The notes under the pieces are model-generated. The model ran no database searches. It was not told where the DNA came from and saw nothing but the letters and a program-made list of their open reading frames with translations. From Nanobdellota archaeon (GTDB lineage: Archaea; Nanobdellota; Nanobdellia; Parvarchaeales; Parvarchaeaceae), in contig JAJZXE010000002.1 in the NCBI GenBank assembly GCA_021802505.1, forward strand, positions 11,770-75,769: DNA of 64,000 nucleotides, read 5' to 3'. Made by a program: the position numbers and the translations under genes. Shown here in pieces: positions 11,137 through 62,835 of the stretch. Each line of letters starts with the position of its first letter. Position 1 is the first letter of the stretch.

Positions 11137-11167
11137 CTGATTTATGGTTTTTTATAGAATTTATACC

Positions 11168-11722: not shown

Positions 11723-11778
11723 TCTTTAATTATTTCATTAAGATATATAAACATTTCTATTATATCGTAGGAACGATA

Positions 11779-12831: not shown

Positions 12832-12903
12832 ATTTTTTTAAACCATCCAAAGATTAAACCCTTTTCATGATAAGCGTATATATTATTATTTCATAATCAG
12901 TTA

Positions 12904-14106: not shown

Positions 14107-14128
14107 ACCATCAAGTTTTGTAAATGTA

Positions 14129-15555: not shown

Positions 15556-15611
15556 TTTGTTTATTAGAAAGTAGATAATATTAATAGTTTTTCTTTAAAT
15601 CAATGACAGCT

Positions 15612-16253: not shown

Positions 16254-16305
16254 AATTATTACGACTTTTATAACGTTATATAGTTATGCTATCCTTAGGG
16301 TTAGC

Positions 16306-17748: not shown

Positions 17749-17783
17749 ATCTCTGTTTCATTATTTTTATAAAATACTGTAAC

Positions 17784-18140: not shown

Positions 18141-18172
18141 AACTATCCATTGTTCTTTTTATTTTAATGCCT

Positions 18173-19066
18173 TTAATCCGTCTTTTCTTCCTTGAAATTG
18201 TAATTATTTATCTTGTCCTCGCTTTTCTTGTGCTGTTTGGATATGGGCTCGGTGTAATATTTCTCCTCCAGATCAGACAGCAAGGATAGGTCTTCTCTGC
18301 TTAAATCCAAGGCCGCCGCGGCTATATCCTCTTTCATGTGCTCCATATTGCTCGCTTTTGGAATCGGGAATGTATTCTCTTTATGCAGGAGCCAGCTCAA
18401 CGAAACCTGCGCGGGAGTCGCTGAATATCTTTCCGCTACCTTTTTAAGGTCGGAAAGAAGTGCGGTATTGCTGAAAATTTTACCGTGAGACAGCGGGCTG
18501 TAGGCTATTACGGCGATGCCATTGTCTTTACAGTAGTCGAATAATCCGCTTTTTTCAATGTCCCTGGTGATTATGCTGTATTCCACCTGGTTCGAAGAGA
18601 TTTCATACTTGGACATTGCTGCCTGGGCTTCTTTTGTTTCTTCCAGTGAAAAATTACTTATCCCGATGTGCCTTATCTTTCCGTCTTCGACGAGCTTTTC
18701 CATGGCCCGCATTGTTTCTTTTATCGGAATGGACTTGCTCGGCCAATGCAGCTGATAAAGATCAAGGTAATCCGTTCCCAGGTTTTTAAGGCTGTTTTCG
18801 CACGCGTTTATAACATCGTCATATTTGAAATGTGTAGGCCAGACTTTGCTTGCTATAAAAAGTTTCTCCCTATCGTAGCCTTCTATTGATTCCTTAACAA
18901 CCGGTTCGGTACCATACATTTCCGCGGTGTCTATGAAATTAATGCCGTTGTCTACCGCATATCTTATCGCTCTTACGTTTTCTTCCCTGTTGCTGCTGAG
19001 TTCCCACGTGCCTACTCCCATTACGGACAATTGTCTTTTGGTCTTATTGAATTCCTTCATTTCCAT
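18173..19066 (-). CDS. Aldo/keto reductase
   Basis: 'INFIDTAEMYGTE', 'YLDLYQLHWP' and 'IRHIGISNF' are canonical AKR blocks. Confidence 0.9.
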   Translation of the reverse strand: MEMKEFNKTKRQLSVMGVGTWELSSNREENVRAIRYAVDNGINFIDTAEMYGTEPVVKESIEGYDREKLFIASKVWPTHFKYDDVINACENSLKNLGTDYLDLYQLHWPSKSIPIKETMRAMEKLVEDGKIRHIGISNFSLEETKEAQAAMSKYEISSNQVEYSIITRDIEKSGLFDYCKDNGIAVIAYSPLSHGKIFSNTALLSDLKKVAERYSATPAQVSLSWLLHKENTFPIPKASNMEHMKEDIAAAALDLSREDLSLLSDLEEKYYTEPISKQHKKSEDKINNYNFKEEKTD

Positions 19067-19113
19067 ATTACCGTTAAAAAGGTGATTATATTTATAAATA
19101 TCAGGCGGGTAAC

Positions 19114-19701
19114 TCAGCCCAAATCGCTTATTATCTCGTCTGTCGTTAAAACATCAAAAAGCTTTTTCATGTTCGCAGTGGATCTTTCATGCGCTTCTTT
19201 ATCGCTTGAAGAAGAGGCATCTGAGGCTACAACTGTATAAAAACCCCTGTTGGAGGAGTCTCTGGCGGTTGATTCGACGCCTACCTCGGTGGCTATTCCC
19301 GCTATGATCAGTGTTTCTATTCCGGCATTCCTTGCCATCAATTCAAAATTCGTGCCGATGAAAATACTTGCCGTATTTTTATTTATCACTATCTCGTTTT
19401 TATCCGGAGGTATTTCGAGTTCAAACATCTCCGCCGGCAGCCGGGAAAGATCGAATTTCAGTTTACCCAAAGAGTATTTTCTGGCCGGAGATTCAAATTC
19501 CTGCGGCAGGGGTGTTATCTTTGTGAAAAATACGGGTATTTTTTTACTCCTTGCGGTGTTGATGAGATTATTCATGTTTTTAAGAAATTCCTCTTTATTG
19601 TATATACTGTTAACAAGCATTTTCTGCACATCCCACACTATCAAGGCGGTGTGCTCTGCTTTCAGTATCTCATTCATTTTGGTGTAGACTTTCCTTTCCA
19701 T
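19114..19701 (-). CDS. Isochorismatase-family cysteine hydrolase
   Basis: 'TALIVWDVQ' and 'IETLIIAGIATEVGVESTARDSSNRGF' (catalytic Cys-to-Ala/Thr-type block) match the isochorismatase-like fold. Confidence 0.85.
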   Translation of the reverse strand: MERKVYTKMNEILKAEHTALIVWDVQKMLVNSIYNKEEFLKNMNNLINTARSKKIPVFFTKITPLPQEFESPARKYSLGKLKFDLSRLPAEMFELEIPPDKNEIVINKNTASIFIGTNFELMARNAGIETLIIAGIATEVGVESTARDSSNRGFYTVVASDASSSSDKEAHERSTANMKKLFDVLTTDEIISDLG

Positions 19702-19785
19702 TTATTGTATACAGAGGCTGGATTTAAAAATTTTTTGGTTAAATCTTCAAAGTTTTATAATAAAGCTTCCATATAATAATATCAG

Positions 19786-22503
19786 ATGGAACCGGATAAG
19801 AACATATTCATAAAGGCAAATCCCGGAACGGGTAAGACGACTTCTCTTGCTGACAGGGTTATAGAACTGATAAAAAGCGGCGTAAGCGAGAGGGAGATAC
19901 TCTGCCTGACGTTTACAAACAAGGCGGTGGATGAAATGTTTGATAAGATAAGCCTTAAACTGAAGGAAAACGGGATGGAGGGTTCAAGAATAAACGGACT
20001 TACAATCTCGACCTTTCACAGTTTTTGCAATCTTTATTTTTCAGAGCAGGGAAAGGAATATGATCTTGTAAGCAACAATTTCATCCGTTTTTCCATCTTC
20101 AAAAGCCTGGAAAACAACAGTGCATTCAACTATGAGAGGGATTACATCATACAGGAACTGATACCGAAAATAGAAAATTCCATAAGATACATAAAAAGTT
20201 TCGGCATAACCCCCGATTCTATAAACATAGAAAGAACAAAGGAGGATCTCATGAACAGATCATTCCTTGAGAATATGGGGGGAATATCGGTAAACGAAAT
20301 CCTCGCGTTTTTGGACTATTTTATAATTGCATTCAAGGACTATGAACGGGAAAAGGGGGAAAAAAGGATAGATTACAACGACCTTCTCAGCAGGTTTATA
20401 ATGGAATACGACCCGTTGAAGAAACATTACAGATATGTACTGGTAGATGAACTGCAGGATCTCAACGATGTGGAAGCAGAGATAGCCCGGCTAGTCGGGG
20501 ATTACCTGTTTCTCGTCGGAGACAGAAAACAGTCCATATTCGGTTTTCAGGGGGGCAGCCTTAAAAATTTCATAGAATTCCAGAAACTCCCCGATCTGGA
20601 AAGCCTGACAAAGGGATTAAACTACCGGAGTTACAGCGAGATTATTAAATATGCAAAGGAGTACTTTTTAAGAAAAACAAAGGATCCGAGTTACAAAGAG
20701 GAGCTAAACGAGTTTAAGGGAAACAAGGGAGAGGGCGGAAAAGTCACGGAGTTTGTCGGCAGCAATACCGACAACATAGCGGTCAAATTGGCCATAGATC
20801 TGACGCTGCAGGGCAGGAAAGCCGCAATAATAACAAGGACGAACGACCAGATAATAAGCATCTCCAGACTGCTTGATTCAAAAAACATAAAATATGCAAC
20901 GACTGCCAGCGCTTCCGTTTCAAAACGGGCGAAGAATGCGGTGATAGACTATCTGAAGGGCATATTTTACAGAGATGAAAAGGACGTGATAAAGGCCATC
21001 TTTACGCCGTTTTCCGGTGTACCGCTTAGAAAGGCCTTCGAAATAGAAGAAAGATACAGGAAAAAAGAGATCGGAATGGAAGAGATCAAGAGGCTTGCAA
21101 AACCTTTTTTTGACAGGATGGAATCCGCACTGGATGTCTACGGCGTTAACCGCCTTTTTAATGAAGTCATACTTCCGATCTCGGTGTCGCTTGACAACGA
21201 TTACTACATAAGCGCGGCGGCGATACTCGAAAACATCAATGATTACTTTGATAATAACGAAATCCCGAATTTCAACGATATACTTGTGTATCTTTATGCT
21301 GCGGAGGACAGTTATGAATCAAACGACCAGAAGGAAAATCTCATACTTACAACGGTGCACAAGTCAAAGGGCCTGGAATTTGACAATGTCGTATACGTAC
21401 CGAAAAAACAGAACAATAAGACGAGTTTTATAGATCTCGTAACCAACTCCATAATAAAACAGGTGAAGGATATAGACGTAAAGGAGGAGCTTCTTGAGGA
21501 GGGGATAAGGGTCGATTTCGTCGCATTTACACGCGCAAAGGAAAGCTTATTTATTGCCGTAAACCCCGCACTCTCGGAGGATTACTATATAGAAGGGCTG
21601 GCGGAAAGGGTTTTTGAAGAGATAGAAGACGAGCCCGCTCCGTACAAGAAAAGATACGAGGAGGCTTATTCCATGTTTGTCAATAAAAAATACGAGGAGG
21701 CCAAAGCATTGCTGACAGACAACGATAAATGGCTTATGGACCGGGTGCGCAGTTACTTTGACGGTAAGTTGAGAACGATATCTTTCTCGCTTCTGGATTC
21801 GCTTTCGGACCCTCTTAATTTCATAAAAAGGGATGTTCTGGGCATAAAAGAAAGAACAAAAAGCACGGAATTCGGATCAAAGGCGCACAAACTGGCAGAG
21901 GAGTACTTTAAGGGGAAGATAAAAGAGGAAGAATTAAACGAGGATGAAAAGAAGGTATTCGGAAACATAAAAAACATAATAGAAGAGATAAATGCAAAGT
22001 ACAATTCGCAGGAGATAGAGGCGGAAAAAACAATAGATATGCCGCTGAGCGCAGTTTTTCCCGAAATAAAGGCAGATTTGAGGATGACGGCAAAACTCGA
22101 CGCCGTGTTCCTTAATAAAGCCAGGAACAGACTGCTGATAATAGACTTTAAGACCGACAGATCGGAGGAACAGGGATCAAAACACAGAAGGCAGCTCGCA
22201 CTCTACAGAAGGATGCTTGCACTCGAAAACAAAACCGATGAAAAGGAAGTCGATACCGCGATAGCCTACATAAACCTGACCGGAAAGATAAACACCGGAA
22301 AATTCACGTATAAACTGGATACGCAGAAGGTAAAGGACTCGCAGATAGAGACGATTGAAAAATACATTTTACAGCTGGTTGAATACATCAATGATCCTTC
22401 CAAACTGGTTGAAAATGCGATAAAGAAGTATTACTATTCAGACAGCTTAAGCGATGAGATATTCAAAAAACTGAAGGAAGAATACGCAAACCACGGTGTA
22501 TGA
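19786..22503 (+). CDS. UvrD/PcrA-family helicase fused to a C-terminal RecB-family (PD-(D/E)xK) nuclease domain
   Basis: Walker A 'ANPGTGKTTSL', motif Ia 'ILCLTFTNKAVDEM', motif II 'VLVDELQDLN', 'RQSIFGFQG', motif V/VI 'TVHKSKGLEFDNV'. C-terminal 'LDAVFLNK...LLIIDFKTD' matches the RecB nuclease motif hh(D/E)YK(T/S). Confidence 0.8.
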   Translation: MEPDKNIFIKANPGTGKTTSLADRVIELIKSGVSEREILCLTFTNKAVDEMFDKISLKLKENGMEGSRINGLTISTFHSFCNLYFSEQGKEYDLVSNNFIRFSIFKSLENNSAFNYERDYIIQELIPKIENSIRYIKSFGITPDSINIERTKEDLMNRSFLENMGGISVNEILAFLDYFIIAFKDYEREKGEKRIDYNDLLSRFIMEYDPLKKHYRYVLVDELQDLNDVEAEIARLVGDYLFLVGDRKQSIFGFQGGSLKNFIEFQKLPDLESLTKGLNYRSYSEIIKYAKEYFLRKTKDPSYKEELNEFKGNKGEGGKVTEFVGSNTDNIAVKLAIDLTLQGRKAAIITRTNDQIISISRLLDSKNIKYATTASASVSKRAKNAVIDYLKGIFYRDEKDVIKAIFTPFSGVPLRKAFEIEERYRKKEIGMEEIKRLAKPFFDRMESALDVYGVNRLFNEVILPISVSLDNDYYISAAAILENINDYFDNNEIPNFNDILVYLYAAEDSYESNDQKENLILTTVHKSKGLEFDNVVYVPKKQNNKTSFIDLVTNSIIKQVKDIDVKEELLEEGIRVDFVAFTRAKESLFIAVNPALSEDYYIEGLAERVFEEIEDEPAPYKKRYEEAYSMFVNKKYEEAKALLTDNDKWLMDRVRSYFDGKLRTISFSLLDSLSDPLNFIKRDVLGIKERTKSTEFGSKAHKLAEEYFKGKIKEEELNEDEKKVFGNIKNIIEEINAKYNSQEIEAEKTIDMPLSAVFPEIKADLRMTAKLDAVFLNKARNRLLIIDFKTDRSEEQGSKHRRQLALYRRMLALENKTDEKEVDTAIAYINLTGKINTGKFTYKLDTQKVKDSQIETIEKYILQLVEYINDPSKLVENAIKKYYYSDSLSDEIFKKLKEEYANHGV

Positions 22504-49227: not shown

Positions 49228-49323
49228 ATGTCAAGCATAGTATTGGTGGGTGCAGCGGTTTTATATTTGCTGATACTGGTAGCGATAATACTGAGAAATA
49301 ACTCCCTGGCTTCGAGAGTTTAG
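49228..49323 (+). CDS. Candidate 31-aa hydrophobic micro-protein
   Basis: MSSIVLVGAAVLYLLILVAIILRNNSLASRV. Preceded by a purine-rich 'aaggggga' 8 nt upstream. Single TM helix. Sits in a 263-bp intergenic gap and is absent from the >=60-aa ORF track. Confidence 0.25.
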   Translation: MSSIVLVGAAVLYLLILVAIILRNNSLASRV

Positions 49324-49875: not shown

Positions 49876-49939
49876 ATTCTAGTAATCATTCTTTACAGTT
49901 AAAAACTTTATATTTTAATTCAAATAAAGAAGATAAAAA

Positions 49940-52900
49940 CTAGGAAACGCTGCTGAAAGTCACGGATGGCATCACTCCTGCTGGAGGATAGGCACGGGTG
50001 CGAACCCAATAGACATTTAGGTTGTAAGAAGTAGAAAACGTTGTTTGTGCAGGGTTAAGATAATAAGACACTGTTACATAAAGAGGCGTAGCAGGAACAT
50101 CGGTTGTTGTACTCCCCCAATTTGTATATCCATATTGAACTGATGTGGAACCGTTGTCAGGATACAATACTCCAAAAATATGATAATTACTATCGCTTGT
50201 TATTTGTGAAGTATCAAAATAGTTAGCAGCTGAAGTAGTCGTAGTTTCGGCTGTTATCGTAGAGTGGGCTTGTACATTTCCCGCCCAACCTACAGCGTTT
50301 TCGTTTTCACCATTGTCAGCGTGCCAAGCAGTATTATTTAAAGCAGTTAATGCGTCGGGCACTATTCTAAAATTAGTAGTGTCGAAAGAATTAGTATTGG
50401 CATAACTTTCCAATATTTGCGCCCCGCTTACAGTATAAGAAGCAGATGAGAGATAAACATAACTTCCTGCAGCTGCATTATAAGGAACCACTTCTGTAAG
50501 TCCATTATCAATGGTCAGTGTTCCGCCGCTATTACCGCTGTTCCATTTAGTCGTGTTAAGGCTTGTCCCTGCGAAGTTGTCATAGAAATTGAATACATTA
50601 GCCCCGTCATCATACTCACCGTAATTGGGAGAAAGTGTGGGGGCTTCTCCTGTGGTCTTGTTGTTGAAAAGATTAGTAGAATTGGAGGCAAATCCTATAT
50701 ATATTGTAATCGATGAAGAAGCAGGTATACTTCCGGTTTTGATCCAATAAAGGGCATTTTTGGAATAAGAGTAGTTCTCAAGCCATGATGGTATTAAAGT
50801 TCCATTGGGATAAAAGAATTCGATATTCTGGAAATTGGGAGCTGCATAACCTTTATACACTGAAGACGTCATATTTATCATCTGCTGGAACGGCTGAGGT
50901 GTAGCTGCAGACTGAGAATTGTTTATTGCGATTTTAGCATAATTTTCTACGGATGCTGGTATAACAGCCTGCCCAAAACTTATGGAAGGCATCACTCCGC
51001 TAGGTGGATAAGCGCGGACGCGAACCCAGTTTGCATGAATTATATTATTCGGGGAGCCCGGCCCGGGATTTCCAAGCGTCAAATAAAAAACAGGATTATT
51101 GTAGTTAGTTTCGGATGCAGTCATATTGTTATCGACGGAATAGGTGGTAGTTAGTATACTGGCGGTGATTGACGAGGTATTTTTTATGATGACTTGTGCT
51201 ATATAGGTTCCATTTGTACTCACGTTCTGTGCACCATTGAGGAGTGCCACCTTTCCATTATAATACCATCCACCTCTGGAATTTGCCCAAGCATTGACAT
51301 CAAATTGGTCACTGGTTGCACTTGGTGTTATGTAATTAGAACCGCCTATCATTACCATATTCGTAGAATTGATAATATCCCCCAGACTTTCAGCAATAAA
51401 AGGCGCACTGAATGTTTGATTGCTGTAAGTTATACCATCGTACGCAAAAGACCCTGCTGTGCCACCAGGTGTAATTGTAACTCCATTATTTACAGCGACA
51501 GTTACCCCACTTGGTCCGCTATTCCATCCGGCCTTTAATGTAGTCCCGGCAAAATTGTCATAGAAATTGAATACGTTGGCACCGTCATCATACTCTGCAT
51601 ATGTTGGAGATAGCTGAGGAGCCTCACCGGTAGTTTTGTTATTGAAAAGATCTGTTGAATTGTGAACCAGGCCGATTACTATGTTTGTTATGGTGGTGTT
51701 GGCTGGTATTCCATCTGGCAATTTAATCCAGAACAAAGCATACTTTGAAGTGTAATTCTCAAGCCATGAGTTTATCTTTTTATCACTGGTTTTGTTGTAA
51801 AACACCACATTCTGGAACTGGTGTCCACTGCTTAAGTTTATGTACTGCTTGTAATTTGAATAGGATAGGTTCACCAGCTCCTGGAATGGTGCTGGAGTGG
51901 CGGTTGACTGTACATTGGTTATATTTATCGGCAGGTAATAATCCAAAAGCGTAGATAAGCTAGGATTAATTACCCTCTTTATAGTTACAGAATTTGAGGT
52001 ATAATTTGCATTTCCACTGGTATTCAGTACAATCGTGTAGTTATTTGCATACTTTCCTAAGTTTATCGTCGTTGTCGTTGTTATTGTTTTATTAAGAACT
52101 CCGTTTATGTATAACGTTGCCGTTACCTGGCTGTTAATAGTAGATATTGCTGCAGTCACAGTAAGATTTGTTCCATTGTATGTGTAGTTTACACCCGGTT
52201 TTGAGGTCAAACTGAGAGAAGGTACCGCTTTGTTTATCGTCTCATAATAAGATATGTTGTTTATACTACTTGAATTTGATCCTCCAATAACTCTAATCTT
52301 GCCGATGGATGGACTGCTGGCATAAGTCGAAATATTCCTGGAAAATGACGTTAAAGACGTAACTGAGTTATTTATTATATCCCATAGTTTTACATAATTG
52401 TTATTGGATTCAACGGTAAAATTGCTTGTTTGACCGTAAATTGCAGTCACATTATTGTTTGAAAGTCCGTTTATAAACAGATTTATCGGATTTGTAACGA
52501 GATTGTTGAATTTTACAGATGGTATTATTCCGTCCGGAGGAGCAGTTGGAGAGTAATAACTTACTGCGTTGTTTGACCACAAAGCGGTATACGCTCCGCC
52601 TCCGTCCTCGTAATAATCCATTTCTATCCTAACGGTTCCTAAACTAGATTCTACCCCGCTGTAGGCTGTAAAAGGCTCTGTATGCCACTGGCTTACAAGA
52701 TTATTCGGATTTGAGGTTCCTCCTAACCAATAAGCGCCGTTTCCCTGTCCTGCCGTTGTAGAGTAACCCAGGGCTATTCCGTCATCGGAGCCGACGTAAA
52801 AAGTAGTTGCCGAATTGACCTCCGCCCATCCTATTGCTTTTATTATCCATGAATTGCCGGTGTTTGATACGGGCGGATTCGGATATGCCGCTCCGCCGCT

Positions 52901-55900
52901 GTATCCTTCCTGATAATTAATTACTACATTTGATTTGGTTGTTCCGTCTACATCCTGAGAGCTGCCCGATAAAGCGGTATAAAATGGTATGGTAGAAGAT
53001 ACCATCGAAGCACATGAACTTATGGTGACACCGTCGTTTAATGTGGCTGAATATACGTTATTCTGATAACTTCCGCTGTCACACGCCCCACCGGAATCAT
53101 AGTAGATCTGATACTGCAATCCGCTGTTCATCACATTACCGATATCATTGTACTGTCCGTAAGTCGATGACAACTGAGGTGCTTCACCCCTTGTTTTATT
53201 GTTGAAAAGATCTGTTGAATTAGAAGCAAAACCCACGGCTATGTCAAATAAAGTCGTATTTGCCTGTATACCGTTTGGCAGCTTAATCCAATAGATAGCA
53301 TAACCTGTGCCGCTGCTGATGTGATAGCTTTCCAGCCATGAATTTATTGGCTTGCCAGTTGTAGTATTAAAGAATTCAAGATTCTGGAGGGAGTGAGCAC
53401 CGCTTTGATTTATGTACTTACTGTTTGCCGAAGTTATGGTCAAATTTATCATCTGCTGGAATGGCTGTGCCGTAGAAATCGTCTCCGGATTCGTTATATT
53501 CAGAACCTGATACTTGTAGACTGAAACAGGTGTGGCTAGGGATTTCTTAGAAAATGATATAGCCAAGGAACCGTTTGATTCCATATATCCTTTGGTAATA
53601 TTAGGAATGTATACTGCCGTAGAAGTCGTTATATTATCCGGTAAAGAAAAGCTGTAGTTGCCTAGTAAATCCGTAAAATGGATAACATTAATATCGGAAG
53701 TATGCGTTTTTCCGTTGTATATAACTTTCCATGCGGTGTTAGAAGGCAGACCGGTTTCATTGAATGACGGAGTGTAATTCCAAAGCGATATGTTTGTGGA
53801 TACTCCCGCCTTAGTCATTCCCAGAGAATAACCTTTTGAAAATCCTGCTTTATAAGAGTAGATGCCTGATCCGGAAGAGAGCGAGGTTATTGAAATGTTT
53901 TTTGGAGTTATATTGCTTCTGTTTACTCCATTATAATCTACCCACCAGGTAATGTTATTTGGCAGGTTGTTCTCAATAAATTTATTTGTACAGTTCCACC
54001 CTATAAAGAAGGATATGGATCCGGCTTGAACATATTTAGACTGTGTTGAGCAGGATGAATTAGTTGACGCGGTAGCAGTGTAATTTCCGAATGGCGTATC
54101 GGGCACTGTTATTGTTCCGTTAGGTAAAATAAATGTTACTTTTGGCATAACCCCGTTGGGATACGAAATAGGCAGTGTTGGTGCCGTTAATATAAATCCA
54201 CCGGGCCCACAGCCACCGCCTCCATTTCCTCTTGAAGTGGCGAGTTTATACTCTCCGGGCGGCAAATAAATCGAGCCGTATGAGCTCAGACAGTATGGTG
54301 TATTAAAGAAGTGATTGTAGTAACCTACTCCGTTTGAAGCACCTGTTATACTTAATCCAGAATAACCTCCGTTACCTCCCGCCATATATATGTTAACATC
54401 TCCACCTCCCCATGAACAAATCATGTTTAGATTTCCGCCATATTCCATATTAAAGAAATTACCACATGAGGTGTAATTTTCACTTAGCTCTGCCGGAAGT
54501 TGAGAGCCGGTTGAAGGTTGAGGGTAAGGACCTAGATCTATAGATGTACTGTTACTAAGCTTAGCTAACACAACCGTTGAATTGGAAGCAAATCCTATGT
54601 AGATATTGGTGGATGAATTAGCGGGTATACTGCCGGGATTAAGCCAGTACACGGAGTATTTACTATAGATATAGTTCGCGAGCCAAGAGGGTATTATAGT
54701 GCCGTTCTGGTAGAAAAACTCAACGTTTTGGAAATTTGAAGCGGCCAGACCTGCGTAGATACTGTGGCTGAGATTTACAACCTGCTGTAAAGGAGAAACT
54801 GTCGAAACACCCTGTGAATTGTGTATCTTTATAACCCTGTAATATTTTATATACGCAGGTACCGCCCCTGGTATAGCAGAACTTACAGAACTTACATTCT
54901 TTCCGTCAAATGAAACAGACCATAATGAGTTTGGCGCTAAACCATTCTGAACAAACGACGTAGTGCAGATATCGGATAGTGAAAAATGAATGTTTATGTT
55001 GGTACCAGCGTTCTCTTCCGCTTGTGTAATATTAGGAGTATAAGTTGACGTACAGTTCAATGTTGAGGATACATTTGAAAGCACAGGAACTGATAAATTA
55101 TAACGTCCTGAAACTGTGCTGAACATTATAGAATTGGATGTCGCTGATTTATTTATTCCATTGAACAATGCGTACCAGTTATATCCTTGAGGAAGACCGG
55201 TTTCATTAAGATAAGTAGTAACGAGGGTTGTATTTATATCAATTGAAGGCATCACTCCTACTGGTGGGTAAGCACGTGTACGAACCCACCTAACATAAAT
55301 TGGATTGGTATATTCATTTGTTAAGGCTAAAAATATCGTTGAACTAAAAGCTGGAATATTAGTTGTTATTGTTTGTCCTGCGTTTGGTGCAGAGGAATAA
55401 GAATTAAGATAATAAATTATTCTAGATTCAGTAGCAGATATGGAATAAATGTTATATGTGTTAGTAGGATATGAACCTATTTTGTTTTGTATGCCGGCAG
55501 AAGAATATGCGTTTGTATACCAATTTCCATCCTTATAAACTTGTATCCCGAAAGCGGGGTTACCACCAAAATATGTACCCGGTACCGTATTCGTCATGCC
55601 CCAGCGAAATGTTGTAGATGCCGATGGGCTGTCTTCGTAAACATCTAAAATTATATTAGAATTCCACTGTATATTTGTATCTGCAATCCATGTTTCATGG
55701 CTTAATCCTCCCGTTCCTCCTCCAGTTAGTGATAGACTATTATTTACTGAAATACCGCTAAGAGAACCAGAGGTTTGATCACTACCGTAGCTATTCCATT
55801 TTGTAGTGTTCAAGCTCGTCCCTGCGAAATTGTCATAGAAGTTGAATACGTTGGCACCGTCATCATACTCTGCATATGTTGCTGATAATTGAGGAGCTTC

Positions 55901-58900
55901 GCCGGTAGTTTTGTTATTGAAGTTATTTGCGTACTGTAGCAATGTCCGGTTGAATATCATGTAGATAGTTATACCGCTTTTTGATGGAATACTCTTTATC
56001 TTAAGCCAATAAACAGTATTATTTGATCTGTTTGAATTCCCGGACTCAAGCCATGAAGGTATAACGCTACCGTTCTGATAAGTGAACATTATATTGGAAA
56101 GCCGGGAATTCTCATATCCGGAATACTTTGAAGAGTTAAAGCTAAGCATCTGCTGGAAAGGCTGAGAAGTCGAAATGTTCTGCGAGTTGTAAAAGGATAC
56201 CGGAAGAACAAACGGCTTTTCATAAGCCGATGTATCATTTGAAAATGCGACCGTTAGATTGCTGCCTGCCGGCAGATATGTCCTGCTTACGTTGGAAACA
56301 AAGCCGGAATTGTATTTAACTACAGGATACACAACAAGGGTGTAATTGCTGCTGTATGAAGTGATGAACTTTAAAGTGTTGTTGACAGACAATCCGTTTT
56401 TACCGCCAAATTCCGCTTCCCATTTATAACCCTGCGGAAGACCCGCTTCCTTGAAATAGCTGTAGCATATGCTTGAAAAGGTTATGTTTACTGATGAACC
56501 GGATGTAAAATTTTCTTTTGTAATCGAGGGCGTAAAAGTGCACTGACCCTGTTTTATGGTGTTTGTGGAGAATGTAAAAGTCCCGTATGTTGTATTAAAT
56601 GACAACACTGTAGTATTTGAGCTGTTTGACTGCGAATTATATTCCGCAGACCATGTTGTTTCCGAAGGCAATCCGGTCTCCCTGAAGGTGGTGATGCAGT
56701 ATGAATGACTGAAAGATACAGAAATGATGGAATCCGCGGAGATATTTCCGCTCTGCGGAGAAGGAGTATAGACGCAACCGTTTACCGTTTGATCCGGCAC
56801 GGTGAATGAATAGGTCCCTTTCGATGAATTTATTGCAATGGTGGAAGTGGTTGATGAATTTGATACGCCTGCAAAGGTGACATTCCATTTTGTAGAAGAA
56901 GGAAGACCGCTCTCCCTGAAGGTGGTGATGCAGTATTTCTCTGTGAACTTCAACTGCGTATAATTACCGGAAACCAGATAGCCGCTGGAGCTGTTTGAGT
57001 AATAGAAACAGTTGCTGTTGTTTACTGCGGGGACTAAAAATGAGTAATTTCCTGGCGGAACATTGAATAGGATAGTAGACTGGGAAGATGAATTGTCTAT
57101 GCCGTCGTATGTAACCTTCCATGTAGTTCCAGAAGGCAGACCTGTCTCTGTAAACCCTGTAAAACAGTTACTGGCAAATGTTATACTCTTGTTGGAACCT
57201 GCCAGTATACTGCCGGATGAAGGCGTGGGATCCAGATAGCAGTTAGCCGAGACCTGTATTGAAGACACTGTAAAGGAAAAATTACTGTAGATAGAGGAGA
57301 TAAGCAGTGATGAGGTGGAGGAGAAGTTAGTTATCCCGTCGTATGTAACCTTCCATGTAGTTCCAGAAGGCAGACCTGTCTCATTGAAATAGGTGTTACA
57401 TAGCGCGGAATAGCCTATTGTAATGGAGGTTCCGGCGGACAGGTGACCAGATAATGGTGAAGGCGTGAAAAGGCAGTTGCCGCTCTTTATCGTGTACGCG
57501 GTGAAGTTAAAGGTCCCGGGAGAAGTGACAAAGGAGATCAGATTACCGGTGCTGTCATTCTCGGTCTTGTTCGCACCGTTATATGACAGGGTAAAATTGA
57601 TGTTTTTTGGCAGTCCAGACTCCTTAAAGTAAGATGTACATCTTGTCTGATTAAATACAAGATATATATTCGAGCCGGCTGCAGCCGTTGAATTCGTAGT
57701 TACCGTGTAAAAACAGTTGTCTATGGTCAGGTTGCTTATAGAATATGCAAATTTACCCGGCGGCGTGATGAAAGAAATTTCGCTGCTATTGGAAGTTTCG
57801 TTTATCCCGTCATAAACAACGTTCCACTTCGAACTTTTAGGCAGGCCATTCTCTATGAAGTTGGTAGTGCAGCCGCCAGAATAATTTATTATCTTGGAAG
57901 AGCCGGCTGCCAAACCGCCCGAAGAAGGAGAAGGCTGGTAATAACATGTGGAATTCCCGACATAGGATGCGGAGAAGACGTACGTGCCGTTTAGCGATGG
58001 AACTTTTATCGAATTTGTATTAGAAGACGTGGCAATTCCATTGTAGGTTATACTCCAGGTCGTATTCAACGGCAAACCGGTTTCATTGAATGTAGTATAA
58101 CACTTTGCGGAAAAATGGATCTTCTGCAACGACCCCGTCACTGTACTGCCACTGCTTGGGGAACTATAATACGTACAACCGCCTATTTTTACGTTTGCAA
58201 CGGACAGCTTAAATATCCCTGCCGGAGTAACCACGGAAACATTCCGTGAAGAAGTAGACAATTGTATCCCGTCATAAGTAAGATTCCATTTCGTCCCAGA
58301 AGGAAGACCGCTCTCAATAAAAGTGGTGTTGCAGGTGTTTTCTGTAAAAGTTATGGCCTCGGAAGACCCTGCTTTCAGGGTGCCGGATGGCGGCGATGGG
58401 AGATAGCTGCAGCCGGAATATATGGAGGAGTATGAAGAGAAGGAATAACTGCTGTTAGAAGTCACAAAGGTTATGTTCTGATTTGATGACTTCTTTGTAA
58501 CGCCGTTATAGGTTATATTCCACAATGCACCTGAAGGAAGAGACTGCTGCATGAATGTAGTGTTGCATTCCAAAGTGTAGGAGATGGCTACGGAACTTCC
58601 TGCAGAAAGCGAACCCTTGGTAGTATCCGGCTGGTAATAGCAGCCGCTGCCGACGCTGACTATGGAAGGATAGTAGGTATGACTGCCGGGAGAAGCCAGT
58701 ATTATTATTTTGCTGCCTGATGAACTGTTTGTGATGCCGTTGAAGTCAACGCTCCATTTTGTAGACGAAGGAAGACCTGTCTCGTTGAAATAGGTGGCGC
58801 AGAAATTATTATAGACTATATTAACCGTACTGCCTATCTTCGCCAGTCCGCTGTTGCTTGTAAGATTAATGTTACAGCCGCTTACAGAGATATTTTTTGG

Positions 58901-61900
58901 AAGGATTAAATAACTGAAGGAGGAGGGGGAAAAGGAAGTATTGAAGCTTATCGAATTTGATGTTGATTTGCTGAAACTGCCGTTGTATGTAACGTTCCAC
59001 GGATAACTCTGCGGAAGATTGTTTTCCTTGAAAGTCGTAATGCAGTAATCCGGAGCAAACTCTATCGTCAAAGACGAGCCCGATCCTACAGTACCACGTG
59101 TCATATTCGGAACATAATTACAGCCGTTGGAAAAAACATTGTAGGATGAAAAGTTATATTGTCCGTTGAGAGCAGTGAACGTAAGTATATTTGATGATGA
59201 AGTTCCGTTCAAGCCATTATATTTTACTGTCCATAATGCACCGGAGGGAAGACCGCTCTCCCTGAATGTGGTAATACAGTCATCCGAGAACGTTATCTTT
59301 AGGTTCTGCCCGGCCGCTATTCCCCCGGAAGAAGGGGCCGGTACAAAAGAACATGAAGAGGTTATAGGTATGCCGGGGACGCTGAACGACCTTGACTCGT
59401 TCTGTGAAATCCATTCGACGTGCGATGAGTTCGTAGACAAATTATTGCCCTGATACACATAATTACCATTTACCAGATAGGGTTTCAGATCGAAGTACCA
59501 TTTCGTCCCAGGAAGGCCTTTTTCAGATATATTGGAATAGCACGTAGCCGAGAAGTGCAAGCCGATGGAACTGCCGGCCTTTACAACGGATGGATAAGAA
59601 GTGGAAAATATACAATTGCTTACATTCACTGCAGGCACGGCAAGAGAAAAATTGCCGGCGTTTGTAACGAAACTGGTCTCGTTTGTACCTGAAGAATTGG
59701 TATAATTGAAAGTGGCGTTCCAATCCTGGTTTTCTGGCAGACCCCTCTCCGTAAGATATGTTGTACATGTGGTAGGTGTGAAGGAAACATTTACGGACGA
59801 GCCGGAAGTTGTGTTTCTGCTTTTAGTCAGGGGGGCGAAATTGCAGTTATGCCCGTGTTCATTGTACAGTTTAAAGGAATAATTACCGGGAATCTGAAGT
59901 ATGCTCAGCTTATTGGAATTGGAGGAAACCGTTGCCCCATTGTATGTCACCGACCATAGAGTACCGGAATAAAGACCGTTTTCCACAAAAGTCGTTGTGC
60001 ATTCCTTTATGAAATTCAGGTTCACCGTAACTCCTGCGGTGTCATTTCCTGAAAGGGGCTGCGGATAATAATGACACGTACCCCCTGCCGGAACCTCTGC
60101 AACGCTGTAGGAATAATTGCCGTAAAGAGACGTAAAAGAAATAGAATTAGAGGAGGAACTTTTATTCTGACCGGCAAAGTATGCAGTCCAATCCATTGAA
60201 GAAGGAAGACCGCTCTCTTTAAAGGCAGTAATGCAGGAGCTACTGAAATTTTCCGATACATTTGCACCCGCCTGCACCGCTCCCGAACCGTTTTCCGGGG
60301 AGAAAACACAGTTTCCGATGGAAAGTTTCGGCACTGAAAAAGAATAGCTGCCTGGGACGGAGGTGAATTGTATTTTATTTGACTGCGAGTCTGTGGTACT
60401 GCCGTTTAAGGCGGCCTGCCATGACGCCCCTGCCGGCAGATCTTTTTCCGTAAAGATTGTATCGCATGACGTCAGACTGAAGGATACGTGCACCGGATGT
60501 CCAACCAGTATAGAACCGGAAGTCACATTCGGTTCATAGAAGCAGTTCTTATAATCCGCGGTAGATATCTGATAGTAATACTTTCCAGGCTGCATCAGGA
60601 ATGAGATATTCTGCGTAACAGAGTTTTTCTTTATCCCGTTGTATGTAACAGACCAGTTGGCGCCCTGCGGCAGACCTGGATCTATAAAAGCAGTGACGCA
60701 CTCATTCACGTACAATATCGACTCGTTCCCGCCGGCCGCTGCACTGCCTGATGACGGCGAAGGGACGTAATAACAGCCGCCGCCGGATAAGACCGACGAA
60801 GCATTGAAAGAATAGGAACCGTTTACAGTGTGGAAAAACATCGTATTTGAAAGTGTTGATCTGGTTTTGCCGTCATAAGTAACGGACCAGTTGTCATTGG
60901 AAGGAAGACCGCTTTCAAAGAATTCTGTGCTGCATGCGCCAGAGAAATGGATGTTCTGCAGTGCCCCCGCAGTTATGCTGCCGTTCGCCGGATAAGGTGT
61001 GTAAGTACAGTTGCCTATTATTATCGTGGAAACGTTATAGCTAAAAACCGTATTCGGATAGTAGGGAAATTCTATCGTAGAATTATACGAACCGTCTCTC
61101 GTCTGGTTGTCATACTCCACCTCCCATGAGATACCCTGCGGCAGACCGGATGACGCAAAATCGGTGTGACAGACCTTGGAAAAGGCAATCGTAGCCGTTG
61201 CACTGGCAGACAGATTACCAGATGAAGGCGCAGGGGAATAGATACAGCCGCCGCGCGTAGAATTGAAGACATTAAAGGAGAAATTTCCCGGAGCAGTACT
61301 GAAGGTTATAGAAGAAGACGCTGAATTTAATATTATACCGTCATAAGCGACGGACCACTCAAGTCCTGCCGGTAATCCTCTCTCATGAAAAGTAGATATA
61401 CATGCAGGGGTAAACACCACTGTGATTCTGGACCCTGATGACAGCGGGGATGATGCATTTGAAGAAGGATAGTATGTACAATTGTTTACCACGACATTAT
61501 TTACGGAGAATGGAAAACTGCCTAAACCAACGAAGAAGGAAATATTGTCAGGGGACTTATTATACAAGGAAGACGAATCGTAATTTACCTGCCATGTTTC
61601 GTTTACCGGCAATCCCTCCTCGTAAAATCCAGTAAGACAAGAAGAGGAAAAATTTATCGGGATTATGCTTCCGGGAGCCGCAGAGCCTGCTGCGGGGTCG
61701 GGAGTAAAAAGACAGTTACCAAGCGATACTTTGCTCACGGTAAAATTGGAAGTGAAGTTTGCCGGAGATGGTATAAAAGAGATACTGCCGGAAGCGGACG
61801 CATTATCCATGTTATCGTATGAAACGTTCCACTCAATACCGGTCGGCAGACCATTTTCCAGGAATACCACCTTATTCGTCTTAACAGTGCAGGGAGTTAT

Positions 61901-62605
61901 GAAAAATATCGTTTTGTTTGTGCCGGCTTGCAGCGAACCGCCCGCTGGGAACGGGCTGGACTTACAAGCGTGATCGGATACATTGCTTACACGAAATGTG
62001 AAAACTCCATAACTTCCGGTAAACTTTAAACTGTTGTTTACGGAATACTTTGTAACACCGCCGTAGGTAACGCTCCAATTCTCATCCGCAGGAAGATACT
62101 GCTCGTTAAAATAAGTAGTACACTCAGACTTGAAGAAAATTTCTACGGTATTACCTGCCCGGACAATGCCGCCGAACTCGCTCGGAATAAAAACGCAACC
62201 GTTCACAGATACATTATTTATCTGGAAACTTATTGATCTGCTGTCCGAGGTGACAAAGTCGGTATTCGTATTGGAGTAAAACTTATTTGAATCGTAGGAA
62301 ACATGCCATAGAATGCCAGTCGGCAGGCCTGACTCCTTAAAAGTAGCGCTGTAAACCGCAGGCGGCGGGATAGTCACGTTTGTCTTGTTTATGGTAAGGT
62401 TTGTTGTATTTATATGCGAGATTACCGGCCGTGAAAGCAGCTTTGTGATTGAAGCGCCAAGTATATTTGTAGATACTGCGAGGTAAAAAAGGATTACTAC
62501 AAGTATGATTAAAAGAATAAAAAAGGCCGTAAGATGCGGCTTAAAGCTCCTTTTTTCTTTATTACTGTGAACTAAACGTTTAGTGTTATTATTACTGTGA
62601 GTCAT
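49940..62605 (-). CDS. Giant (4221 aa) membrane-anchored, hyper-N-glycosylated modular surface protein
   Basis: Single uninterrupted ORF. N-terminal signal-anchor 'HLTAFFILLIILVVILFYLAV'. About 29 tandem domains of 78-100 aa, each with the 'F.E.GLP.G..W.V.Y(N/D)G' motif. In the C-terminal half, about 5 modules of roughly 550 aa begin 'N.SQ..(S/A)T.QPFQQMINL(T/S)...SWLE...YWIKLP', contain 'TGEAPQLS.TYAEYDDGANVFNFYDNFAGT' and end 'WVRTRAYPP.GVMPS'. Hundreds of NxS/T sequons, very low charge, Ser/Thr/Asn/Gly-rich. Confidence 0.85.
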   Translation of the reverse strand: MTHSNNNTKRLVHSNKEKRSFKPHLTAFFILLIILVVILFYLAVSTNILGASITKLLSRPVISHINTTNLTINKTNVTIPPPAVYSATFKESGLPTGILWHVSYDSNKFYSNTNTDFVTSDSRSISFQINNVSVNGCVFIPSEFGGIVRAGNTVEIFFKSECTTYFNEQYLPADENWSVTYGGVTKYSVNNSLKFTGSYGVFTFRVSNVSDHACKSSPFPAGGSLQAGTNKTIFFITPCTVKTNKVVFLENGLPTGIEWNVSYDNMDNASASGSISFIPSPANFTSNFTVSKVSLGNCLFTPDPAAGSAAPGSIIPINFSSSCLTGFYEEGLPVNETWQVNYDSSSLYNKSPDNISFFVGLGSFPFSVNNVVVNNCTYYPSSNASSPLSSGSRITVVFTPACISTFHERGLPAGLEWSVAYDGIILNSASSSITFSTAPGNFSFNVFNSTRGGCIYSPAPSSGNLSASATATIAFSKVCHTDFASSGLPQGISWEVEYDNQTRDGSYNSTIEFPYYPNTVFSYNVSTIIIGNCTYTPYPANGSITAGALQNIHFSGACSTEFFESGLPSNDNWSVTYDGKTRSTLSNTMFFHTVNGSYSFNASSVLSGGGCYYVPSPSSGSAAAGGNESILYVNECVTAFIDPGLPQGANWSVTYNGIKKNSVTQNISFLMQPGKYYYQISTADYKNCFYEPNVTSGSILVGHPVHVSFSLTSCDTIFTEKDLPAGASWQAALNGSTTDSQSNKIQFTSVPGSYSFSVPKLSIGNCVFSPENGSGAVQAGANVSENFSSSCITAFKESGLPSSMDWTAYFAGQNKSSSSNSISFTSLYGNYSYSVAEVPAGGTCHYYPQPLSGNDTAGVTVNLNFIKECTTTFVENGLYSGTLWSVTYNGATVSSNSNKLSILQIPGNYSFKLYNEHGHNCNFAPLTKSRNTTSGSSVNVSFTPTTCTTYLTERGLPENQDWNATFNYTNSSGTNETSFVTNAGNFSLAVPAVNVSNCIFSTSYPSVVKAGSSIGLHFSATCYSNISEKGLPGTKWYFDLKPYLVNGNYVYQGNNLSTNSSHVEWISQNESRSFSVPGIPITSSCSFVPAPSSGGIAAGQNLKITFSDDCITTFRESGLPSGALWTVKYNGLNGTSSSNILTFTALNGQYNFSSYNVFSNGCNYVPNMTRGTVGSGSSLTIEFAPDYCITTFKENNLPQSYPWNVTYNGSFSKSTSNSISFNTSFSPSSFSYLILPKNISVSGCNINLTSNSGLAKIGSTVNIVYNNFCATYFNETGLPSSTKWSVDFNGITNSSSGSKIIILASPGSHTYYPSIVSVGSGCYYQPDTTKGSLSAGSSVAISYTLECNTTFMQQSLPSGALWNITYNGVTKKSSNQNITFVTSNSSYSFSSYSSIYSGCSYLPSPPSGTLKAGSSEAITFTENTCNTTFIESGLPSGTKWNLTYDGIQLSTSSRNVSVVTPAGIFKLSVANVKIGGCTYYSSPSSGSTVTGSLQKIHFSAKCYTTFNETGLPLNTTWSITYNGIATSSNTNSIKVPSLNGTYVFSASYVGNSTCYYQPSPSSGGLAAGSSKIINYSGGCTTNFIENGLPKSSKWNVVYDGINETSNSSEISFITPPGKFAYSISNLTIDNCFYTVTTNSTAAAGSNIYLVFNQTRCTSYFKESGLPKNINFTLSYNGANKTENDSTGNLISFVTSPGTFNFTAYTIKSGNCLFTPSPLSGHLSAGTSITIGYSALCNTYFNETGLPSGTTWKVTYDGITNFSSTSSLLISSIYSNFSFTVSSIQVSANCYLDPTPSSGSILAGSNKSITFASNCFTGFTETGLPSGTTWKVTYDGIDNSSSQSTILFNVPPGNYSFLVPAVNNSNCFYYSNSSSGYLVSGNYTQLKFTEKYCITTFRESGLPSSTKWNVTFAGVSNSSTTSTIAINSSKGTYSFTVPDQTVNGCVYTPSPQSGNISADSIISVSFSHSYCITTFRETGLPSETTWSAEYNSQSNSSNTTVLSFNTTYGTFTFSTNTIKQGQCTFTPSITKENFTSGSSVNITFSSICYSYFKEAGLPQGYKWEAEFGGKNGLSVNNTLKFITSYSSNYTLVVYPVVKYNSGFVSNVSRTYLPAGSNLTVAFSNDTSAYEKPFVLPVSFYNSQNISTSQPFQQMLSFNSSKYSGYENSRLSNIMFTYQNGSVIPSWLESGNSNRSNNTVYWLKIKSIPSKSGITIYMIFNRTLLQYANNFNNKTTGEAPQLSATYAEYDDGANVFNFYDNFAGTSLNTTKWNSYGSDQTSGSLSGISVNNSLSLTGGGTGGLSHETWIADTNIQWNSNIILDVYEDSPSASTTFRWGMTNTVPGTYFGGNPAFGIQVYKDGNWYTNAYSSAGIQNKIGSYPTNTYNIYSISATESRIIYYLNSYSSAPNAGQTITTNIPAFSSTIFLALTNEYTNPIYVRWVRTRAYPPVGVMPSIDINTTLVTTYLNETGLPQGYNWYALFNGINKSATSNSIMFSTVSGRYNLSVPVLSNVSSTLNCTSTYTPNITQAEENAGTNINIHFSLSDICTTSFVQNGLAPNSLWSVSFDGKNVSSVSSAIPGAVPAYIKYYRVIKIHNSQGVSTVSPLQQVVNLSHSIYAGLAASNFQNVEFFYQNGTIIPSWLANYIYSKYSVYWLNPGSIPANSSTNIYIGFASNSTVVLAKLSNSTSIDLGPYPQPSTGSQLPAELSENYTSCGNFFNMEYGGNLNMICSWGGGDVNIYMAGGNGGYSGLSITGASNGVGYYNHFFNTPYCLSSYGSIYLPPGEYKLATSRGNGGGGCGPGGFILTAPTLPISYPNGVMPKVTFILPNGTITVPDTPFGNYTATASTNSSCSTQSKYVQAGSISFFIGWNCTNKFIENNLPNNITWWVDYNGVNRSNITPKNISITSLSSGSGIYSYKAGFSKGYSLGMTKAGVSTNISLWNYTPSFNETGLPSNTAWKVIYNGKTHTSDINVIHFTDLLGNYSFSLPDNITTSTAVYIPNITKGYMESNGSLAISFSKKSLATPVSVYKYQVLNITNPETISTAQPFQQMINLTITSANSKYINQSGAHSLQNLEFFNTTTGKPINSWLESYHISSGTGYAIYWIKLPNGIQANTTLFDIAVGFASNSTDLFNNKTRGEAPQLSSTYGQYNDIGNVMNSGLQYQIYYDSGGACDSGSYQNNVYSATLNDGVTISSCASMVSSTIPFYTALSGSSQDVDGTTKSNVVINYQEGYSGGAAYPNPPVSNTGNSWIIKAIGWAEVNSATTFYVGSDDGIALGYSTTAGQGNGAYWLGGTSNPNNLVSQWHTEPFTAYSGVESSLGTVRIEMDYYEDGGGAYTALWSNNAVSYYSPTAPPDGIIPSVKFNNLVTNPINLFINGLSNNNVTAIYGQTSNFTVESNNNYVKLWDIINNSVTSLTSFSRNISTYASSPSIGKIRVIGGSNSSSINNISYYETINKAVPSLSLTSKPGVNYTYNGTNLTVTAAISTINSQVTATLYINGVLNKTITTTTTINLGKYANNYTIVLNTSGNANYTSNSVTIKRVINPSLSTLLDYYLPINITNVQSTATPAPFQELVNLSYSNYKQYINLSSGHQFQNVVFYNKTSDKKINSWLENYTSKYALFWIKLPDGIPANTTITNIVIGLVHNSTDLFNNKTTGEAPQLSPTYAEYDDGANVFNFYDNFAGTTLKAGWNSGPSGVTVAVNNGVTITPGGTAGSFAYDGITYSNQTFSAPFIAESLGDIINSTNMVMIGGSNYITPSATSDQFDVNAWANSRGGWYYNGKVALLNGAQNVSTNGTYIAQVIIKNTSSITASILTTTYSVDNNMTASETNYNNPVFYLTLGNPGPGSPNNIIHANWVRVRAYPPSGVMPSISFGQAVIPASVENYAKIAINNSQSAATPQPFQQMINMTSSVYKGYAAPNFQNIEFFYPNGTLIPSWLENYSYSKNALYWIKTGSIPASSSITIYIGFASNSTNLFNNKTTGEAPTLSPNYGEYDDGANVFNFYDNFAGTSLNTTKWNSGNSGGTLTIDNGLTEVVPYNAAAGSYVYLSSASYTVSGAQILESYANTNSFDTTNFRIVPDALTALNNTAWHADNGENENAVGWAGNVQAHSTITAETTTTSAANYFDTSQITSDSNYHIFGVLYPDNGSTSVQYGYTNWGSTTTDVPATPLYVTVSYYLNPAQTTFSTSYNLNVYWVRTRAYPPAGVMPSVTFSSVS
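50571..50690. repeat. Intragenic DNA repeat copy 1 (encodes 'TGEAPxLS..Y.EYDDGANVFNFYDNFAGT')
   Basis: Roughly 85-90% identical by eye to 51541-51660 and 55815-55925 (core 'gaa(g/a)ttgtcatagaa(a/g)ttgaatac(a/g)tt(a/g)gc(c/a)ccgtcatcatactc'). Confidence 0.7.
51541..51660. repeat. Intragenic DNA repeat copy 2
   Basis: Near-identical to 55815-55925 over about 100 bp ('ggcaaaattgtcatagaaattgaatacgttggcaccgtcatcatactctgcatatgttg...ctcaccggtagttttgttattgaa'). Confidence 0.7.
55815..55925. repeat. Intragenic DNA repeat copy 3
   Basis: See copies 1 and 2. A companion repeat set encoding 'WVRTRAYPP' lies at about 49960-50010, 50985-51030 and 55245-55290. Confidence 0.7.
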
Positions 62606-62835
62606 ATTCCGTCACACTACTTAAAAAGTAAAGAATTTGACATATATATGGTTTATATGGTGCCGGCGTATAAAAATATTTGATTTTATACAGGAATATC
62701 TGTCCATTACTTTTGAAACAATCTAAAATAACCGGGTTATCTTATTCTGCCTGAATCCATAAAAATACAAAATAATAGATTTTAGACAAAACACAAGCAG
62801 TAGTTAATATTTTATGAAGTACAATATCTAATTAT
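62606..62835. promoter_or_regulatory. AT-rich divergent promoter region between the giant surface-protein gene and xth
   Basis: 230 bp, more than 70% AT. 'ctttttaag' lies about 20 nt upstream of the giant gene ATG on the minus strand. 'ttaatatttta' lies about 30 nt upstream of the xth ATG. Both look like leaderless-style TATA placements. Confidence 0.3.

Follow-up and report, generated by a model that had tools for sequence, protein, structure and literature searches.

A gene of 12.7 kb from an ultrasmall Parvarchaeales archaeon of acid-mine habitats most probably encodes a membrane-anchored fibrillar adhesin, which would tether the cell to its host or the host matrix by multivalent binding of glycans (we assign this reading a probability of roughly 0.6). 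The deduced protein combines a transmembrane anchor, a stalk of 26 domains and lectin-type heads, which is the architecture of the fibrillar adhesin class. The molecular details of DPANN host recognition have been called 'unknown' (PMC11329633). With its synteny kept across Parvarchaeales and its full adhesin anatomy, the gene provides a specific and clonable candidate for host attachment. Public MAGs contain it with no function assigned, and it is undescribed both in the literature mentioning DUF2341 and in the main genomics paper on Parvarchaeales.

Gene integrity, source organism and genomic context

The window, i.e. the whole stretch of 64,000 nucleotides that was analysed, contains the giant gene as a single uninterrupted open reading frame (ORF) of 4221 codons plus stop on the minus strand, exactly as given in the original prediction. 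Read from stop to stop, the frame opens just two codons upstream of the ATG. A frameshift or stop codon splitting the ORF had been named as a possible objection. On checking, a product of 4221 or 4222 aa was found intact in seven members of the cluster, which come from separate assemblies at NCBI and ENA, with 99.81-99.98% identity and 12 variable columns among the seven near-identical copies, and the dCTP deaminase gene adjoins the giant gene in two ENA contigs also. Tandem Repeats Finder detected no tandem DNA repeats within the gene, and its direct DNA repeats are short (at most 132 nt) and only 60-88% identical. Assembly collapse or a frameshift is therefore unlikely, and the repetitiveness is old and apparent in the protein only. 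Recent repeat expansion and assembly collapse are rejected on the identity of 35% between protein repeats together with the zero tandem DNA repeats. The giant ORF is a real gene and no assembly artefact.

By sequence affinity, the source organism is a Parvarchaeales (DPANN) archaeon related to ARMAN-4 and ARMAN-5, and not the Thermoplasmatales-like archaeon that had been supposed. The Fe/Mn superoxide dismutase (SOD) of the window groups into one 90% cluster with its counterparts in Ca. Parvarchaeum ARMAN-4 (88% identity) and ARMAN-5 (87%), and the best homologs of the large modules are 'DUF2341 domain-containing proteins' from Parvarchaeota and Micrarchaeota. Among the GTDB species representatives scanned, the module family is nearly confined to Parvarchaeota/'Nanoarchaeota', Micrarchaeota and a few other archaeal MAGs. 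The order ExoIII / giant gene / dCTP deaminase / endonuclease III / Bcp is repeated in at least six Parvarchaeota MAGs, in which the neighbouring proteins share 67-86% identity with their window counterparts. On SOD clustering, the GTDB scan and this synteny, a Thermoplasmatales origin is rejected. The window also carries a lone cytochrome b gene, in agreement with reports on Parvarchaeum genomes (PMC10134863). Parvarchaeales are without lipid or isoprenoid synthesis and are regarded as host-dependent (PMC10134863). A tRNA scan and an Rfam scan of the window were both empty. The genomes of ARMAN-4 and ARMAN-5 comprise about 1 Mb, so that the giant gene would account for more than 1% of such a genome.

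Table 1. Features of the giant gene with their positions in the window.
Feature	Position	Strand	Evidence or remark
Whole gene	49940..62605	-	4221 aa, ~454 kDa unglycosylated; same product in 7 assemblies
Basic cytoplasmic tail and single transmembrane helix (~24-46), aa 1-46	62468..62605	-	hydropathy, composition, orthologs
Membrane-proximal linker, aa 47-88	62342..62467	-	no domain match; 29-38% identity to orthologs
Stalk, 26 contiguous ~78-aa beta-sandwich domains, aa 89-2128	56222..62341	-	consensus FxExGLPxGxxWxVxYxG...C...C
Module 1, DUF2341 and ConA-like head, aa 2129-2465	55211..56221	-	Pfam 39.3 bits; aligns with module 5 family
Module 1 head cassette, aa 2235-2454	55245..55903	-	98.2% DNA identity to ARMAN-4 BJBARM4_0839
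5' handle GEAPQLS..YAEYDDGANVFNFYDNFAG, module 1	55790..55921	-	repeat family D4; mean conservation 0.80
5' handle, other D4 copies	51515-51646, 50537-50668		
3' handle WVRTRAYPPxGVMPS, module 1	55242..55306	-	repeat family D5
3' handle, other D5 copies	50982-51046, 49962-50026		
Stalk-type domains between modules 1 and 2 (one full, one partial), aa 2466-2599	54809..55210	-	HMM
Module 2, weak DUF2341 and Gly/Cys-containing head, aa 2600-2875	53981..54808	-	Pfam 18.8 bits, sub-threshold
One partial and one full stalk-type domain, aa 2876-3025	53531..53980	-	HMM
Module 3, DUF2341-like and PA14-like head, aa 3026-3370	52496..53530	-	profile match to 6qe7; Pfam DUF2341 14.5 bits
About two further beta-rich domains, aa 3371-3574	51884..52495	-	no Pfam match; 54-65% identity in four orthologs
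Module 4, DUF2341 and ConA-like head, aa 3575-3886	50948..51883	-	Pfam 24.6 bits; module alignment
Module 5, DUF2341 sandwich and ConA-like jelly roll, aa 3887-4221	49943..50947	-	Pfam 42.2 bits; C-terminus is YPPAGVMPSVTF motif

Anchor and ectodomain composition

The N-terminal signal-anchor that had been proposed is borne out by a basic tail (aa 1-24, 29% charged) followed by a hydrophobic segment, the sole one in the protein with KD>1.6 in a hydropathy scan. Orthologs likewise start with K-x-H-F/L-T-A/T-F and a hydrophobic stretch. The class III (type IV pilin) motif [KR][GA]Q..E is absent from the N-terminus KRSFKPHLTAFF... and from those of the orthologs, so the segment is taken as a signal-anchor with the remaining chain outside the cell. 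The window ORFs scanned include no pilus genes.

With 9.0% charged residues, compared with 28.8% in ten window ORFs of cytoplasmic type, the ectodomain has a composition of extracellular type. N-x-S/T sequons number 190, compared with 105.7 +/- 8.3 in shuffled sequences (z=10); the reversed motif, used as a control, stays at the expected level with 102 occurrences. The 'hundreds' of sequons announced earlier were thus too high a count, but their enrichment is real, and heavy N-glycosylation of the protein is predicted.

Stalk domains

The HMM of the stalk-type domain gave 30 matches of 75-88 aa each, namely the 26 contiguous domains of the stalk and four interspersed or partial ones. Repeats had been predicted as about 29 tandem domains of 78-100 aa; they are real, but differ in number, arrangement and size. 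The domains are about 35% identical to one another, with L6, P7, W12, C49 and C74 invariant, and exactly two cysteines are present in each of R1-R25. The pair C49/C74 suggests a disulfide in place of an isopeptide bond. In topology, the domain is a seven-strand beta-sandwich of the CnaB/transthyretin-like (carboxypeptidase-regulatory-like) type.

No match to the stalk domain exists in Pfam or NCBIfam, and a comparison of the short repeat with PDB sequences yielded chance antibody matches only (E>0.2). An exhaustive profile (HMM) search, in contrast, returned 5684 clusters at 50% identity, 954 of them with E<=1e-30, which identifies the empty result of a word-indexed search with the short-repeat alignment as a sensitivity artefact. 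Members of the family include pro-kumamolisin (sedolisin) propeptide, beta-propeller and InlB-B-type repeat proteins; where members carry a name, they are 'hypothetical' proteins from Parvarchaeota and Marsarchaeota. The stalk domain represents a large unnamed family whose named carriers come from acidophile-associated archaeal lineages. Typical beta-sandwich domains measure 3.5-4 nm, from which the length of the stalk is estimated at roughly 100 nm. A stalk of 26 such domains is probably rigid.

Tip modules and their heads

The tip comprises 2093 aa, less than the approximately 2300 aa originally given for the C-terminal part, and the Pfam scan together with an alignment of the modules recovered five units led by DUF2341 (PF10102), in line with the expected number of about five. 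For the whole protein, DUF2341 scores 98.7 bits in four stretches (gathering threshold 23.4 bits). Scanned alone, modules 1, 4 and 5 exceed this threshold; modules 2 and 3 remain under it, yet both align with the family (Table 1).

Modules 1 and 4 align to the architecture of module 5. The jelly roll has two sheets and is superimposable on members of the ConA-like lectin/glucanase superfamily; Pfam LamG models did not match the protein. The ConA/LamG-like character ascribed to the modules therefore holds as a ConA-like fold for modules 1, 4 and 5, but not for the differing heads of modules 2 and 3. The same division applies to the motifs GEAPQLS..YDDGANVFNFYDNFAG and WVRxRAYPPxGVMPS, which had been attributed to each module but occur in full in modules 1, 4 and 5 alone.

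Searched as single sequences against the PDB, the heads of modules 2 and 3 gave no meaningful match. For the module 2 head, L016 and P0184 possess an orthologous head (69-70% identity) in the equivalent position. The module 3 head carries the motif ..IKAIGWA..F.V.SDDGI.L...G..RIE.DY.E.GG.A...LWS, and a profile of 20 homologs matched RsgI3 (PDB 6qe7) with E=4.8e-4 for the whole sequence and weak per-domain values (0.77, 16). The sensor domains of this structure, which we take to be tandem PA14 domains, are the basis for calling the head PA14-like; Pfam PA14 gave no report on module 3 even at E<=10. The homologs of this head are pilin-like proteins of about 500 aa.

A constant stalk and a variable tip

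Anchor and stalk are common to the species-level orthologs compared (P0182-P0185, L067, L016 and others; 2894-4712 aa). The stalk counts exactly 26 domains in seven of seven, and each stalk domain of the window is closest to the ortholog domain of the same ordinal number (35-73%), not to its neighbours. Because the count is fixed at 26, the length of the rod is apparently under selection. A comparison of module number across orthologous loci, which had been recommended with the original prediction, revealed tips of two to seven modules on this constant stalk, with the order of heads permuted. L067 has a counterpart of the PA14-like head of window module 3 in its first module (78% identity), and in L016 and P0182 the module 1 head is found again in a module further along the tip (57%). 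No close counterpart of the module 4 and module 5 heads exists in the compared orthologs (25-39%). A frozen stalk versus a shuffled tip suggests a selected reach combined with a specificity evolving through module swaps.

Exchange of heads with pilin-like genes

The head cassette of module 1 matches the 3' portion of BJBARM4_0839, a pilin-like gene of ARMAN-4, with 98.2% DNA identity over 659 nt, a figure to be read against the SOD protein (88%), the one direct yardstick for the divergence of the ARMAN-4 lineage. Other DNA matches of the window among the 78 loci compared reach at most 77.6%, and syntenic housekeeping genes are 72-76% identical to those of other Parvarchaeales species. Just upstream of the cassette, the DUF2341 part shows about 60% protein identity to BJBARM4_0839 (33-57% per 30-column window) and is undetectable by blastn. 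The breakpoints of the ARMAN-4 tract lie within the D4 handle on the 5' side and within the D5 handle on the 3' side, and these repeats encode the conserved motifs bordering every ConA-type head. Furthermore, MAG TL2-4.bin18 encodes a second protein with a module that is 84% identical to an entire module of its giant protein. Judged from the ends of the tract and from this same-genome pair, the heads appear to behave as cassettes moving between genes and lineages, with the conserved motifs as their likely junctions.

Single-module relatives are proteins of about 500 aa, many of which start with K[AS]QSA[LM]EY[LM]xTYGW followed by a hydrophobic stretch; ARMAN-4 BJBARM4_0839 and ARMAN-5 BJBARM5_0529 are examples bearing this motif. 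Of 120 homologs from the database, 47 show this archaeal type IV pilin signal pattern, as do 34 of the roughly 88 module ORFs at GTDB loci; the pattern is absent from all ORFs with at least ten stalk repeats. A Nitrososphaeria homolog of the PA14-like head (P0346) matches TIGR02537 (4.7e-10). Pfam and NCBIfam did not detect the class III signal model on the N-termini of the ARMAN pilin-like paralogs, and the neighbours of BJBARM4_0839 are LonB, RIO kinase and two AAA_14/DUF4143 ATPases, with no pilus machinery among them, so it is the motif that carries the pilin assignment in these genomes. Taken with the arCOG annotation and the TIGR02537 match of P0346, the motif points to the ARMAN single-module paralogs being pilin-like.

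Proposed function and alternative explanations

In the favoured model, a type-II (N-in) transmembrane anchor would hold the adhesin, presumably expressed, on the host-dependent DPANN cell. Its 26 CnaB/transthyretin-like domains, predicted to contain disulfides and to be heavily N-glycosylated, would extend the tip across the envelope and far past it, where five variable heads (ConA-like jelly rolls, a PA14-like one and one other) could bind glycans. The likely target would be the mannose/galactose-rich glycocalyx or EPS of a Thermoplasmatales partner, by which the nanoarchaeon would be tethered to its host. Exchange of handle-bounded heads with type-IV-pilin-like paralogs, within genomes and between lineages, would re-assort the binding specificity while the stalk stays constant. 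Previous work described ARMAN cells joined to Thermoplasmatales by 'Velcro-like' contacts, pili-like fibres and string-like links (PMC4110969) as well as host EPS with mannose and galactose glycoconjugates and filaments at the contact sites (PMC8975820).

The original prediction left a principal glycocalyx or S-layer component and an adhesin side by side, and of these the adhesin is favoured. That the protein is a structural part of the envelope, be it the main constituent of S-layer or glycocalyx or an anchor or spacer of the S-layer, is very unlikely: S-layer models (PF05123, TIGR01564/01567) had no match in Pfam or NCBIfam at E<=1. In Micrarchaeum, a related acidophilic DPANN lineage, the S-layer consists of a PF05123 protein of about 101 kDa above a pseudoperiplasm measured at 20-25 nm, which a stalk of an estimated 100 nm or so would exceed several times. 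In addition, the lectin-type heads of the distal half vary in number and order by species and also occur on pilin-like proteins, which fits ligand recognition and not lattice building. The jelly rolls, in turn, resemble those of GH16, PL7 and GH131 and could be imagined as a tethered array of glycan-cleaving enzymes, by which a symbiont unable to make sugars of its own would harvest them from the EPS or glycocalyx of the host. This is quite unlikely, since a regular expression for the GH16 catalytic strand E-x-D-x(-x)-E found none in the 4221 aa, no GH or PL family of Pfam matches, and sequence identity to the enzymes is 8-15%. Across 56 family members the jelly roll has a single conserved acidic residue, without a second conserved carboxylate, and unlike an active-site scaffold it is the least conserved part of the family (mean top-residue frequency 0.34, compared with 0.59 for DUF2341 and 0.80 and 0.71 for the flanking motifs). 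Conserved positions of the module include E180, W135, N148, D113/D114 and R316/R318/Y320.

An adhesin of the same build might also address a ligand other than the host, as in cell-cell contact among Parvarchaeales, retention in biofilm matrix or on minerals, or as a virus decoy or receptor. The architecture suits any glycan-rich target, the predicted heavy glycosylation makes lectin-glycan self-association possible, ARMAN cells are often virus-infected and biofilm-dwelling (PMC4110969), and fast turnover of heads would also be expected from an arms race with viruses. However, given the host dependence of Parvarchaeales (PMC10134863) and their links to Thermoplasmatales (PMC4110969), a host ligand is more economical, and we regard a non-host ligand as unlikely.

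Building on the host adhesin, one may tentatively propose that Parvarchaeales and Micrarchaeota share a combinatorial system of host recognition. In it, lectin-type cassettes bounded by GEAPQLS..YDDGANVFNFYDNFAG and RxRAYPPxGVMPS might recombine within and between species on two chassis, the pilin-like proteins and the length-locked stalk of 26 domains. If so, the repertoire of heads would set and re-set the host cells that can be attached to. Module swapping, as seen in the 98%-identical cassette shared with the pilin-like gene of another lineage, could help to explain the host range of uncultivated symbionts.

Relation to known systems

Fibrillar adhesins, DUF2341 pilus-associated proteins and giant surface proteins of ultrasmall symbionts are already known. 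New are the archaeal N-anchored polarity, the unnamed family of stalk domains, the strict count of 26 versus a shuffled five-head tip, and the exchange of heads with pilin-like genes.

A close likeness is to the DUF2341 pilus-associated proteins (arCOG03508-type; Micrarchaeum harzensis), in which, as in the modules described here, DUF2341 is followed by a variable beta-sandwich head. The ARMAN single-module paralogs are exactly this family, whereas the giant protein is without class III signal peptide or pilus locus and bears five serial modules on its own membrane-anchored stalk. Known members of the ConA-like superfamily (the L-type lectins Emp46/47, VIP36 and ERGIC-53; GH16) and the PA14 domains of RsgI3 share only 8-15% identity with the heads, which are without the GH16 motif.

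Bacterial fibrillar adhesins with CnaB-type stalks are represented by Cna, the SdrD B repeats, SasG/Aap and Gram-positive pilins. Like the giant protein, they possess a cell anchor, a rod of beta-sandwich domains of about 80 aa and distal lectin-like domains, and the Aap lectin domain and SdrD are among the structural matches. The polarity is reversed, with an N-terminal transmembrane anchor and a C-terminal tip in place of a C-terminal LPXTG anchor, and a conserved cysteine pair probably takes the place of isopeptide bonds. The bacterial repeats are often near-identical and vary in number, in contrast to ancient repeats (35%) fixed at 26. Moreover, the giant protein is archaeal, acid-adapted and sequon-rich and has five heads, while the bacterial adhesins have one.

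The SPEARE protein of Nanohaloarchaeum antarcticus comprises about 6000 aa. FhaB/DUF2341 proteins of more than 4000 aa occur in Patescibacteria (PMC11809585). Neither head exchange with pilin-like genes nor the stalk-domain family is described for these proteins, and the giant protein is, unlike them, without FhaB, protease or nuclease domains. Common to all are very large genes in symbiont genomes of the 1-Mb class and predicted roles in adhesion or host interaction.

The short stalk domain is used beyond the giant protein

The short stalk domain of the giant protein, a beta-sandwich unit of about 78 aa, has no entry in Pfam. A profile search with this domain matched the database proteins P0195, P0189, P0188 and P0187, among which it is placed in some cases after pro-kumamolisin (sedolisin) propeptides and co-occurs with NHL/beta-propeller and SBP_bac_5 domains. 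In P0195 it alternates with Flg_new_2 (InlB-B-type) repeats of Pfam, with 11 copies of each. The domain is a general spacer in archaeal surface proteins.

A second giant is encoded in Candidatus Micrarchaeum sp. A_DKE (NZ_CP060530.1, about 256.2-268 kb), where a reading frame encoding 3910 aa or more occupies positions 9269-20998 of the comparison locus L007 and extends past the locus end. Since this ORF contains DUF2341 modules and its portion within L007 has no short stalk repeats, it represents a giant of different build in the sister lineage. Ca. Micrarchaeum sp. A_DKE is cultivated, and transcriptome and proteome data exist.

Genomic surroundings and probable further surface proteins

Two other membrane-anchored ORFs of the window (Table) are low in charge and very rich in sequons (N-x-S/T) compared with cytoplasmic ORFs, which have about 0.6 sequons per 100 aa. 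No Pfam family scored above threshold for either of them; both are probably further glycosylated surface proteins besides the giant protein.

Table. Coordinates of features in the window and in comparison loci
Feature	Position	Strand	Remarks
Membrane-anchored ORF, 368 aa	8025-9131	-	6.0 sequons per 100 aa; 14.9% charged
Membrane-anchored ORF, 451 aa	4794-6149	-	4.2 sequons per 100 aa; 10.0% charged
Cytochrome b gene (Cytochrom_B_N_2)	16306-17748	-	
Putative 31-aa ORF	about 49228-49323 (L001 10553-10648, -)	+	between dcd and endonuclease III
T-rich tract TTTTTATCTTCTTTATTT	49876-49939		directly after giant-gene stop codon, before dcd
Divergent region, giant gene/ExoIII	62606-62835		230 bp; several TATA-like A/T boxes
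Paralogous AAA_14/DUF4143 ATPase genes	L013 5572-6846 and 9210-10463 (ARMAN-4 GG730073.1)		one each side of pilin-like gene

The T-rich tract is a plausible candidate for an archaeal oligo-T terminator of the giant gene. Further downstream, the putative 31-aa ORF is called at the equivalent position in all six related contigs. In ARMAN-4, the pilin-like gene carrying the 98%-identical head cassette is neighbored on both sides by the ATPase genes and not by pilus genes.

No other complex III subunits were found near the cytochrome b gene, and this lone gene agrees with the orphan MQCRB reported from Parvarchaeum and Acidifodinimicrobium (PMC10134863).
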